DNA of 64,000 nt, taken from Candidatus Spongiisociaceae bacterium. Its GTDB lineage: Bacteria; Actinomycetota; Acidimicrobiia; Spongiisociales; Spongiisociaceae. Shown in pieces: positions 1-3,339 of this stretch (positions within the stretch are counted from its first letter, which is position 1; every line of letters starts with the position of its first letter). The stretch spans positions 1,760,001 to 1,824,000 of the forward strand of contig OZ253564.1 of the NCBI GenBank assembly GCA_965262915.1, in the 5' to 3' direction. The notes beneath the pieces were generated by a model. That model was not told the DNA's origin. It saw only the letters and a list, made by a program, of their open reading frames with translations, and did not search any database. The translations under genes were made by a program, and so were the position numbers.

Positions 1-530
1 TTGACCCGTGCTTTGAGATTCATGCCCTTTAGCTGGTGTTTTAGCGGCTCGGGAGCTGTTACGACCAGCGCATGTATCTGGTTAGCGGCCTGGGTGCGGG
101 CCTTGACCGCGGAGCGGCGCACCACCCACAGCATCCGTATGCACTCGACCGGGCCCACACCGGACTTGGGAACCGCGGTTGCTTCGCCCGAGGCAGCTGC
201 CCGAGCTGCCGCCTCGGCGTCGACGCTGTCGGTCTTGCCGCCCTTCTGGCGGCGTAGTTGGCGGTTGGGGCGGTTGACCTCCACCACCTCGATGTTCATC
301 TCGGTCAGGTAACGGGCCAGGCCGGCGCCGTAACTACCCGTTCCTTCCACCCCAACCCGAACCAACTGTCCCCGCGACTCGAACCAGGTGACCATTCGCC
401 GATAACCGGATTCCTCCACCGCGAAAGACTCCGATCCCAGTACCCGCCCGACGCCATCCACCACCGCTGCTACGTGGACGTCCCGATGGGTGTCAACCCC
501 ACCGTAGATAATCTGGTCTGCTTCTCCCAT
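1..530 (-). mobile_element. IS110-family DEDD transposase/recombinase, N-terminal part (runs off window start)
   Basis: Not in ORF track. Manual translation from ATG at 530 (GAGGAG RBS upstream): MGEADQIIYGGVDTHRDVHVAAVVD...VGVEGTGSYGAGLARYL...KGGKTDSVDAEAAARA, with the GVDTH, EGTG and KTDxxDA motifs of IS110 RuvC-like domains. Confidence 0.9.
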
Positions 531-534
531 GATG

Positions 535-750
535 CTCTTCTCCTCTAGGGGATAGACTCATTTCCGATCCCCGGACCCGTGTGCGGTTGGACAGGCCACT
601 CACGGTGGAGAAGTTGAAGGCTCCTATTAGGTCACATCCGCCCCGGGTCACGGGCGTCACGCCCCAGGCCGGGAACGGGCCGACAGATCGATGAAAAGGC
701 ACAAGGCCAGATTTCAGTTGGGTCAGACCCGCCCTAGCCCAGGAACCCTC
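535..750 (-). ncRNA. Putative IS110 bridge RNA in the non-coding left end
   Basis: ~230 bp non-coding end upstream of the recombinase with two stem/internal-loop modules. One contains ACTGAAATC (identical to the target flank), the other TGAGTGG (complement of the junction CCACTCA). CATAAT -10 box at 753-758. Confidence 0.65.
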
Positions 751-761
751 CAATTATGAGT

Positions 762-2190
762 GGATTTCAGTGGGGAGTGACCGATGGGAGTAGGTCCCAG
801 TTGGGTTTCCCCGCGTAGAGAAGGGCGCGGATTCGGTAGTTCGCGAAGTTGGGTAACCCGAACGCTGCTCGTTTGATCCGTTTGATGAGGTTGTTGAGGG
901 CTTCGGTGGGTCTGTTGGTTACCTTCGAGATGTGCCAGTTGGTGATCTGGGGGGTCCAGCGGGCGATGGTACGTCCCAGCTTGTTGATCTCGGGTGGGCA
1001 GGATTCGTCCTGGAGGTCGTCTGCGAGCCCGAGGGTGTATCGGAGAGCAAGGACCGGACTTTCGATCCCGTAGATGCCCCGTACCGTTTCGGTTGCGTGC
1101 CAGGCGGTGCGTACCTCCCCGTGGGGGTCACCGGCATCCAAAAGACCACGCAGCCGGGTTTGACCGCGGTCGCTGATCCTCTCATGCGCAGCGGTGAGGA
1201 GGCGGCGTATCCGATACAGCGGGTCATCCTTGCGGCCTCGATGCCCGAGGGTTTCGTTCTGGGTGCGGCGTCGTACTTCGTCGAGTCGCTGGTTGGCCAA
1301 GCGGATGACGTGGAAGGGGTCTGCTACCTGCACAGCGTTCGGGAGCACCCGGTTATACGCCTTCCGATACGAACCGGACATGACCCGACACCGCCCAGCG
1401 GATAGCCTCACACCATTCGGTGGGCTGCGCCCGGAACCAGGCTGCGGCGCTTTCTGCCGTTCTACCACCGACTATGTCGAACCGGCTGGTGGCCTCCCAC
1501 GTCGACGACAGAGGTGCACCAGACTTTGGTACGCCAACGGCCCCGACGCCAGAACAACGTCTCGTCCACTCCCACAGCTTCGACGGTCCCGACCCGATCG
1601 GTGTCTGCTTCCAGCAGCGCTTCGCCCCAGCGGACGACCTCATTGTTCACCGTATGCCAATCACAACCCAACTCTGCGGCGACCTCGTCGACCGAACGGC
1701 CCCGCCCACCCACCCCGATGGTCACCCACCGGGCCGCTCTCGATGTCAACAACGCCCGTTGGGGACCAATCGTGGGGTCTTGTTCGATGAACGATCTGAT
1801 CTCACAGTCGGGGTTCGGGCACGTCCAGCGGCGTTTCCGCCACCGCAGCCGAACCGGACGGCCGAACGCCGGTAGATCCACCAACACAACCGTTCTGTGA
1901 CCCTTGGACCACACCGGGCCGCCACAGGACTCACACAACGGGCGGGGCTTGCGGGACCCGATCACCACCCCAAGCGGTGCACCCTCGCCCGAGTCGTTGA
2001 TCCCTACCAGATCAACGTCGCCCAGGCCTACCAACAACTCGCACATGCGCGCAGGGATCAGCTTCCACAGGGGTCCTCCTGCCTCGGATGTCTTTTCTCA
2101 GCACCCGATTATGGAGGACCCCCCATCACTTCTGGTGGATTACCACTCCCCCTGGCAGATCCCCGACTCCCCACTCATTTCCGAAGAGCC
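762..2190 (-). mobile_element. ISL3-family insertion sequence, degenerate, right end interrupted by IS110
   Basis: Left IR GGCTCTTCGGAAATGAGTGGGG (2190-2169). The right IR reads CCCCACTGAAATCC and lacks the terminal GAAGAGCC. Transposase has CxxC...CPNPDC zinc finger, GVDET, ADPFHVIRLAN and EALNNLIKRIKR. Confidence 0.9.
767..2068 (-). pseudogene. ISL3 transposase, frameshifted
   Basis: Homology is split over ORFs 1462-2046, 1353-1643 and 767-1468, with frameshifts near 2055, 1483 and 1390. Likely original GTG start at 2068 after a GGAGG RBS. Confidence 0.85.
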
Positions 2191-2870
2191 CGATATCAGA
2201 GCCGTCGCAGAGGAGATCTCCTTGGCGGAGACCGACGCGCAGCGGAACAGTCTGGACGTTCCGCTGGCCACGCTGCTGTCCCAGATCCGAACGGCTGCCG
2301 CAACCAGAACAGCACGTGTAGCCACATCCGACCCCGGACCCGACCCCGGCGCGGCTGCCAGGTCGGCGTCAGACGAATCGTCGACCTCTATGACCACCGT
2401 AGCGGGAATTCTGAGACCGGAGGGTGGTCTAGGTAGCGAGAAACCCGTAGCGGTGTTGATCACCGACGCCAACCGGCTGAGAGATGCCTATGTGGAGTTC
2501 GGAGGGACCTATGAGGGTGAGGACGCTACGACGGTGTTGCCGCCGCCTCCGCCGGAGCCGCCTGGTGTGCCTACCAATGTTGGGATGTCGGTTGAGGATG
2601 GTGTGGTTCTTGTTACCTGGGATGAGCTGGAGTCGGGTGGGGATGTGGAGGAGTATCGTGTCTGGTTCTTGTCCGAGCTCGCGGATGGGGGCCACGAAGT
2701 CGTTCTACAACGTCGCGTCGTATCTGGGTGAGCGGTTCTTCGAGATCACCTATATGGTGGGGTTGTTCGGTGACGAGTTCTCGGTGCAGGTGCGGGCGGG
2801 TAATCGTGTGGGGTTTTCGCCGTGGACCGAGAAACGTTTCTTTACCACACCGTCGTCATCGTCGGCGTGA
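2191..2870 (+). pseudogene. 3' remnant of a surface protein with Pro-rich linker and fibronectin type III-like domain
   Basis: LPPPPPEPPGVPTNV...VLVTWD...YRVW, then a shift at G5 2687-2691 to ...FSVQVRAGNRVGFSPWT (FN3 pattern). The 5' end is cut by ISL3. Confidence 0.6.
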
Positions 2871-3339
2871 TGCCTGCTCTCGGTGATCTGTCTGTGGTTT
2901 GATTGCAACCGGCCGCGGTGTGGTGACCTGTGGTCGTGGTCGTAGGGGTGGGACCGGGGTGGGCCGGGGTTTCAGCGGTGCGGGCTTTCCGATCGAGTGG
3001 GTGTAGGTAGGTGGGATCTCCCTTGTTGAGGTGGGCCGGCGCGAACCCGTTCCCGTCGCCGGGTCAAGATCCCGAGACTGTCTGTGTCACAAACATAGAC
3101 AGGCCCGACTATTGCCCGGCCCGTCGGGCCAAGGTTGCTCACCTTGACGTGGTTCTGCAGAGGAGAATACCGCTTCGCGCTCCGGCCGACAACTAGCGTG
3201 ATCGGGTCGATGTCCAAAGGAACGAGTAGGCGCGTACATCGATGGATTCAACCTGTACTACGGTCTTGGAGATGGCGGGCTACGCTCGTCCCGGCGGCCG
3301 GATGGTGTCCTTCTCTCCGCAGACGCGCTACCGGGATAA

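Follow-up and report, generated by a model that had tools for sequence, protein, structure and literature searches.

IS4321 and IS5075, insertion sequences (IS) of the IS1111 group, reportedly target the 38-bp terminal inverted repeats (IRs) of Tn21-family transposons. The IS1111 group is described, in the available passages of PMC11187229, as having subterminal IRs of 11–13 bp and a guide RNA encoded downstream of the gene. For bridge RNAs, the available parts of PMC11208160 give a geometry in which the 5' side of a loop pairs with the bottom strand over 8–9 nt and the 3' side with the top strand over 4–7 nt. Here we describe an element at the left edge of a 64,000-nucleotide stretch (the window, G000:C1:1760001-1824000) of its source genome, that of a Candidatus Spongiisociaceae bacterium (G000). 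It is very probably an IS110-group element that works like IS621 of Escherichia coli, with, as an earlier note on this DNA had proposed, a bridge RNA aimed at the right inverted repeat (IRR) of an ISL3-family element.

The in-window part of the element occupies positions 1–761 on the minus strand, its ends being set by 16 copies and by intact ISL3 IRRs, and consists of the left end and the first 176 of 409 transposase codons (3–530, minus), the open reading frame (ORF) running off the left edge. The whole element is 1,477 bp long (genome 1759285–1760761), extends 715 bp past the window's left edge, and is inserted 8 bp from the ISL3 IRR tip. In a profile search the full 409-aa transposase matches PF01548 (DEDD_Tnp_IS110, 1.2e-23) and PF02371 (Tnp domain, 1.7e-19), has a DEDD RuvC-like domain, and scores 210 bits with NCBIfam NF033542 ('IS110 family RNA-guided transposase', cut-off 140), as expected of an IS110-group protein. 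The ORF spans element positions 232–1461, leaving 231 nt on the left and 16 nt beyond the stop codon; this arrangement of a long non-coding left end 5' of the gene and a short right end, with neither long terminal nor long subterminal IRs, is also that of the IS110 group. With a right end of 16 nt and guide loops in the left end, the element falls outside the IS1111 group.

The IS110 left end begins ACTCATAATT at 761, exactly where the ISL3 IRR breaks off at 762. Minus-strand positions 762–775 read CCCCACTGAAATCC, and the inner 16 nt of the IRR, CTCCCCACTGAAATCC (762–777, minus), are severed by the IS110 element from the 8-bp tip GATGAGCC, found outside the window, to its left, at genome 1759277–1759284. 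The earlier note had read this boundary correctly, together with the CATAAT just inside the left end; the tip that it gave as missing, GAAGAGCC, is in fact GATGAGCC, which is present in 12 intact IRRs. At the far end the plus strand reads CGATATCA GGCTCATC GATGCTCCTATGG, that is, a copy of the ISL3 target duplication, the 8-bp IRR tip and the IS110 right end, the last reading ..CCATAGGAGCATC on the minus strand. The order of these three parts had been predicted, and the prediction missed one tip base and the crossover bases.

The ISL3-family element, minus its tip, lies at 762–2190 (minus) and matches PF01610 (3.4e-39), PF14690, PF13542 and NF033550; a DDE_Tnp_ISL3 domain with zinc ribbon and helix-turn-helix (HTH), 24-bp terminal IRs and an 8-bp target duplication identify the family. 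Its transposase is broken into two frames (767–1468 and 1462–2046), and because the gene is split the NF033550 scores of the two fragments, 142 and 84 bits, fall under the cut-off of 180. The left IR, CTCCCCACTCATTTCCGAAGAGCC (2167–2190, plus), is intact and has 29 identical genome copies, all unoccupied; next to it is the target duplication CGATATCA (2191–2198), whose second copy is at genome 1759269–1759276. This left IR contains CCACTCA, which is both the sequence read by the right donor guide of the IS110 element (see below) and the start of the IS110 left end (CC-ACTCATA), and which may be a coincidence or a relic of shared history.

Sequencing runs were compared as assembled contigs (the form of all 24 listed runs, four of which were compared), which are blind to RNA ends, strand, level and circles. 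None of the listed contigs joins the right end of the IS110 element to its left end. Contigs of two public runs join the flanks of the pair directly, skipping 2,922 bp with nine shared letters. This length is the sum of ISL3 (1,437 bp), IS110 (1,477 bp) and one 8-bp duplication copy, and the ISL3+IS110 pair is therefore an insertion that some populations lack.

A motif scan of the genome yielded 35 IS110-type left ends. In 16 of the 42 ISL3 right ends the sequence runs into ACTCATA, with an identical junction base and orientation each time; a narrower search pattern gave 16 of 34. Occupancy by IRR class is 15 of 31 for ACTGAAATCC, none of six for the ACTGAAACGC sub-lineage, one of four for single variants and none for the one 23-nt variant; genome-wide, none of the 29 ISL3 left IRs (ACTCATTTCC) is occupied. 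The guide CCAACTGAAATC is carried by 17 elements, and 16 of them sit in ISL3 IRRs at the same base and orientation, in agreement with the expectation that other copies would share the target. The right end was located for 15 copies, of which 11 have GATGA as the right flank and four have GAAGA, and one mismatch is therefore tolerated.

Identical junctions could also arise by common descent, if IS110 had entered a single ISL3 copy and the ISL3::IS110 composite had then multiplied by means of the ISL3 transposase. The window composite does carry an 8-bp duplication at its outer ends, and the contigs of the two runs that are without the whole 2,922-bp composite do not reveal the order of events. 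However, the nine IS110 copies nearest to the window copy are 98.95–99.6% alike whereas the ISL3 copies that carry them are 85.6–94.4% alike, and their outer flanks all differ. Furthermore, the site is shared by a second IS110 lineage that is about 81% alike in DNA and has identical guides; 1.5 kb separates the IR tip from the remaining IR; and the rule relating guide to flank holds for other lineages at unrelated targets (see below). Descent from one multiplied composite is therefore highly unlikely, and the 16 ISL3 junctions are, as judged from these comparisons, repeated independent insertions. Within the window alone the 14-mer repeat is unremarkable, with two matches at two or fewer mismatches and at least two such matches in 10 of 100 shuffles; the genome-wide evidence, comprising the 16 identical junctions and the matrix of own versus other guides and flanks, outweighs this chance test and is decisive.

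The occupied ISL3 copies are more often broken: among 27 copies with both ends found, which are related to each other, the longest frame is shorter than 440 aa in 7 of 10 occupied copies versus 2 of 17 unoccupied ones. This is suggestive of immobilization followed by decay, and fits equally well with older copies having been exposed to hits for longer. Six ISL3 right ends, CTCCCCACTGAAACGCGATGAGCC (the AAACGC variant; for example genome 479395, 1601909, 1720323 and 3227277), mismatch the guide beside the crossover. That this sub-lineage is unoccupied is consistent with escape from targeting, its copies being related to each other. The lone 23-nt IRR, at genome 306092 (minus), reads ..AAATCGATGAGCC (..ACTGAAATCGATGAGCC, one C short) and is a perfect pairing partner of both target guides; an excision may have left it as a footprint, or it may be a variant that arose by chance.

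The 231-nt left end has the layout of a bridge RNA, with two stems each surrounding a pair of guides; all of the following positions are on the minus strand unless stated otherwise. The 5' strand of the target-loop stem is GGGCGGGUCUGAC (722–734) and the 3' strand is GUCGGCCCG (676–684), corresponding in the consensus fold to columns 11–29 paired with 75–93, with several compensatory pairs; within these, the arm CGGGTCTGAC (722–731) pairs with GTCGGCCCG (676–684). The loop opens with a 12-nt segment, CCAACUGAAAUC (710–721), that has the same sense as the IRR top strand CCCACTGAAATC. This is the predicted left target guide (LTG), ACUGAAAUC, which from its sense would pair with the bottom strand; plus-strand positions 710–722 (gatttcagttggg) are identical to 763–775 (gatttcagtgggg) at 12 of 13 positions. 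A small hairpin follows (GGCCUUGUGCC, 698–708), in which pairs 43–45 with 59–61 are invariant and the length differs by lineage, and then the predicted right target guide (RTG), UCAUC with a conserved GA (688–694), the complement of the right-junction TC-GATGA. The earlier note had taken CUUUUC (693–698) as this guide, a candidate that we rejected in favor of UCAUC-GA. The order GGUCUGAC, 12 variable nt, small hairpin, 5 variable nt, GAUCU and GUCGGCC (5' to 3') is common to all lineages, with GAUCU after the variable 5-mer in every one.

The donor-loop stem, GGAUGUGAC (631–639) with CUGUCC (589–594), comes from manual reading and is less well resolved than the target-loop stem. It encloses the predicted left donor guide (LDG), AUAGGAGC (620–627, with TAATAGGAGCC at 619–629), which has the same sense as the element's right end and mirrors its ..ATAGGAGCATC, and the predicted right donor guide (RDG), UGAGUGG (596–602), the complement of the left-junction CC-ACTCA. 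The stem and loop sequences, the 12/13 match, TGAGTGG and the positions of LTG, LDG and RDG were all located where the earlier note had placed them. A two-loop RNA is thus predicted with an LTG of 9 contiguous nt (11 of 12 overall), an RTG of 5 nt plus GA, an LDG of 8 nt and an RDG of 7 nt, and its geometry is, on this reading of the left end, that of published bridge RNAs. The RNAalifold consensus fold recovers the target-loop stem and the hairpin, with double changes in 14 of 41 predicted pairs.

The 12–13-nt copy of the IR in the left end might instead be a scar or a DNA recombination site and not an RNA guide at all, and the apparent use of guide-coding DNA as a pseudo-target in two other genomes, G007 and G021, points in that direction. 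Such behavior is, however, also expected if a DNA copy mimics the target. Moreover, the segment has a constant place, 12 nt after GGUCUGAC and within a conserved, covarying stem, and it is accompanied by a second guide, of the opposite strand, that reads the other flank, an arrangement known from published bridge RNAs. We find an explanation at the DNA level scarcely credible, and turn to the comparison of lineages that bears most directly on the guides.

Seven lineages of this genome, A–G, have differing flanks and were compared in 7-by-7 matrices of own and other guides and flanks. The last 9 nt of the LTG 12-mer match the lineage's own left flank at 9 of 9 positions in all seven, and the flanks of other lineages at 2–8 positions; the complement of the RTG 5-mer matches the first 5 nt of the own right flank at 5 of 5 in six lineages and at 4 of 5 in one, and other flanks at 0–3. 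The loops thus vary with their targets, as the earlier note had anticipated, and this covariation, which we regard as the decisive test, argues strongly that the loop segments act as guides. Consistent with this, the LDG and the right end share an A (six lineages) or a G (two lineages) at one position in eight of eight lineages, and at least 9 of 12 positions agree with the flank in 26 of the 35 left ends. Empty copies of the predicted targets were found for lineages A (16), B (3), D (9), E (2) and G (6). Two further elements come from other genomes. A lineage-E-like element in G021 carries CCUUGUAAC and is inserted after CCTTGTAAC, where the one in G000 carries CCUCGUAAC and is inserted after CCTCGTAAC, a one-base co-change of LTG and flank, and a lineage-B-like element in G002 has its own flank matched at 9 of 9 positions.

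Recognition of the ISL3 IR by the recombinase itself, with the guide matches being secondary, also has to be considered. The 409-aa transposase has a C-terminal XRE-type HTH (HTH_31, PF13560, 3.6e-06, residues 351–386) that could be a DNA-binding add-on, and an XRE-type HTH (PF13560 or PF01381) follows the Tnp domain in five of six clade transposases tested, with none in lineage B at E ≤0.01. A second, non-base-pairing layer of target recognition is moreover reported for ISPpu10 in the available part of a preprint (10.64898/2026.03.19.712850). However, unrelated targets are used by lineages whose proteins are similar and share this HTH, and these targets follow the loop sequences. Targeting determined by the protein is thus very improbable, and the HTH could add affinity alongside the guides. 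Taken together, the three observations that the earlier note had named as capable of overturning its proposal, namely a far end with other flanks, further copies in unrelated targets and loops that stay the same while targets differ, were all sought and none of them overturned it.

The crossover can be placed from the empty and filled sites. Intact IRRs read ..AAATCC GATGAGCC; of the two junctions, the left one retains CC and the right one shows TC. The simple CC core that had been proposed is thus wrong in detail, CC being present at the target crossover and TC at the right end of the element. In all lineages the second crossover base is C, and the first is C, A or T in targets but invariably T in right ends. 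GA is present in every RTG; the RDG reads CC-ACTCA in lineages A and D and AC-ACTCA in B, C, E, F and G, and its core follows the target-side bases in lineages A–E. An alternative left end starting CACTCATA, which would give a shared TC core, was rejected. It would need 23-nt IRRs, and empty sites are of the 24-nt type in 15 cases versus one of the 23-nt type; for lineage D, nine empty 15-mers and no 14-mers were found.

Several observations weigh against the reading of this element as a bridge-RNA system aimed at the ISL3 IRR. The crossover dinucleotides differ between target (CC) and right end (TC), so that a simple shared core is lacking. The LTG register is not constant: the 12-mer includes the crossover C in lineages B, C, E and G and stops one base short of it in A, D and F, in which the following U could form a wobble pair with the opposite G. 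Agreement with the flank falls below 9 of 12 positions in nine of the 35 left ends, several of which belong to truncated or rearranged elements, and the 17th carrier of the guide (left end at genome 3665109, minus) is in an unrelated site. RNAalifold resolves the donor-loop stem poorly and pairs parts of the donor guides together. The single-sequence fold of 560–750 (minus) is no better than shuffles (z = -0.33), and is uninformative in DNA of 64% GC, for which the comparative fold was preferred; Rfam 15 gives no match in window 1–3000 at E ≤1. Finally, the case is built from sequence and assembled contigs.

The copy at genome 3665109 lies between CCCAAAGAACCCC and ACCGCCGTCA, in a site similar to the lineage-C target GGCAAAGAACAC|AACGCAGCCGTCA, and may have arisen by off-target insertion or by recombination.

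In the mechanism that we propose, the left end would encode a bridge RNA with two internal loops, of which the donor loop would read the element's own right end with AUAGGAGC and its own left end with UGAGUGG. The recombinase would join the excised form to the IR between ..AAATCC and GATGAGCC, 8 bp from the ISL3 tip and in one orientation only, and the resulting split IR would presumably immobilize the ISL3 copy. In the circular form ..GGAGCATC would be joined to ACTCATA.., and a TTGACA-17-CATAAT promoter may then drive the RNA, predicted to be 150–190 nt long, to begin about 7 nt beyond CATAAT and to cover positions ~575–745 (minus). The elements of this promoter are present at the sequence level, as had been claimed for the joined ends. 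The -10-like CATAAT is at element positions 4–9 (753–758, minus), 17 bp from the right-end TTGACA once the ends are joined. A -35-like hexamer lies 15–20 nt from the right-end tip in each of eight lineages (TTGACA in five, TTGCAA in two, TTGCAC in one), a -10-like CATAAT, CATACT or CATAGT is at left-end positions 4–9, and the 17-bp spacing on joining is kept in all eight.

A second source of the RNA would be read-through from ISL3. The integrated left end starts 6 bp past the ISL3 transposase stop codon on the same strand, and transcription of the ISL3 gene could thus supply the bridge RNA. The RNA-library contig X20 (262 nt, 13 differences) spans the ISL3/left-end junction with 59 nt on the ISL3 side and gives a weak hint of read-through RNA, DNA carry-over being possible. 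RNA-library contigs of one study also cover the left end at 90–95% identity, with the same possibility of carry-over, and gaps in the RNA-library cover over the transposase gene carry no evidential weight. One 'opposite strands' joint, from 1727 to 3040 of locus L016, is a single contig in X7.

Among 29 same-family genomes the junction pattern at two or fewer mismatches is found in G000 and five others, with the exact junction in G000 only. Of the five others, four hold just the lineage-F form TCACTGAAATTC, and part of G007 likewise has this form. Relics at ISL3 ends are present in G007, G005 and, in another genus, G041. In another Acidimicrobiia metagenome-assembled genome the same arrangement occurs with a 100%-identical transposase, and its outer flank is not in G000; in a Candidatus Spongiisociaceae record the IS110 right end is followed by GATGAGCG. 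Guide-coding DNA itself appears to behave as a pseudo-target in two genomes. In G007 (L018, 1520–1580) the left end is fused at ..ACTGAAATC straight to GATGAGCC, the remaining element being deleted, and in G021 (L021; G021:C1:1562055-1562355) 51-bp left-end units are in tandem, inserted after the guide-coding TCACCTTGGAAC.

Other IS110 lineages of this genome are also found in or near mobile elements. A second ISL3-family IS (398-aa transposase, NF033550 277 bits, 19-nt IRs CTGCGCG[A/G]AAACGTGGGTT) lies outside the window (genome 689150–690750, L040; also 541943, 546193, 4997572, 2009343 and 2806495) and is hit by three of them. The insertion point of lineage B is within the IRs of this IS (CGCGAAAAC|GTGGG), that of lineage E is at the final codons of the transposase gene (CCTCGTAAC|ATGAC), and that of lineage G is some 20 nt inward from one of the two ends (GGGGTGAAATC|CTTGG). 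A third repeated element is entered by lineage D at CCGGGAAACC|CGGGGCGATTCA, 12 nt from its end (for example genome 962696); this target is conserved on one side only, and its 15-mer has nine empty copies. A further IS110-family element with a 406-aa transposase (NF033542 185 bits; L046 ~164–1648, genome ~3638543–3640027) sits in the donor-guide-coding DNA (GATAG|GAGCC) of at least three IS110 copies, with CT on both sides. Sites of this type are also at genome 287119 and 4422068 and in locus L039 of another genome. Its left end holds CAGGCTCCT and GTTGAT, which match its donor-guide-DNA target, and it thus appears to be aimed at the bridge-RNA gene of its relatives.

It is tempting to view these lineages as a guild of bridge-RNA elements that diversified by retargeting onto the termini of other IS, although we hold this only tentatively and think it rather doubtful. 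The targets would comprise two ISL3-family elements, the end of a third repeat, a DEDD transposase gene and the donor-guide-coding DNA of relatives. If this is true, the genome would hold an RNA-guided arms race of transposon against transposon in which each hit immobilizes its victim, and IR variants, the unoccupied AAACGC IRR lineage being one, would let victims escape. Insertion just 3' of the ISL3 transposase gene would then couple the parasite's supply of bridge RNA to transcription of its victim.

The element itself very probably offers a clear instance, from nature, of a mobile element that uses a different one as its landing site, and suggests that IS110-group bridge-RNA elements can specialize on the ends of other IS, about half of the matching ISL3 ends here being split. 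Such splitting bears on the control of IS load in IS-rich, host-associated bacteria. How the bridge RNA is expressed from integrated IS621 is raised as an open problem in the available part of PMC13626964, and the fixed site directly behind the ISL3 transposase gene points to a possible means of obtaining it in the integrated state. A single genome with at least seven related recombinases that have different guide/target pairs is a natural reprogramming series, and the tolerated GAAGA mismatch, the mismatched crossover bases and the one-base shift in register are data on how far bridge-RNA rules bend.

As far as the available parts of PMC11208160 and PMC13626964 describe IS621, the two systems share a recombinase with DEDD and Tnp domains, a long left end that encodes, here by prediction, an RNA with target and donor loops, 5' guides in the top-strand sense and 3' guides complementary to the top strand, a -35 box (here a -35-like hexamer) in the right end with a -10 box (here -10-like) in the left end, and a natural target that is a repeated sequence. 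They differ in that the target of IS621 is a repetitive extragenic palindromic (REP) sequence whereas here it is the IR of another IS, and in the crossover, which is a shared CT in IS621 and xC here (CC in the target, TC at the right end). Here, too, the protein is of 409 aa with an extra C-terminal HTH and the RNA is without an Rfam match.

Like IS4321 and IS5075, this is a DEDD-transposase element that enters the terminal IR of a different transposable element at one position and in one orientation. Unlike them, as far as the accessible descriptions go, it has its predicted RNA upstream of the gene, a 16-nt right end and no 11–13-bp subterminal IRs, and its victim is an ISL3-family IS whereas theirs is a Tn3-family transposon. 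ISPpu9, ISPpu10 and ISEc21 are described, in the portions of the sources at hand, with host REP or intergenic-repeat targets, in contrast to the ends of other mobile elements targeted here and to the one IS110 element here that targets the bridge-RNA gene of related copies. No earlier report of an ISL3 IR as an IS110 target was found in the literature searched, which included the supplements of PMC11208160 and passages of PMC11187229, as far as these were available, with ISfinder outside the search. The mechanism is thus known from IS621 and the targeting of IRs from IS4321 and IS5075, and what would add interest here is the series of retargeted lineages within one genome.

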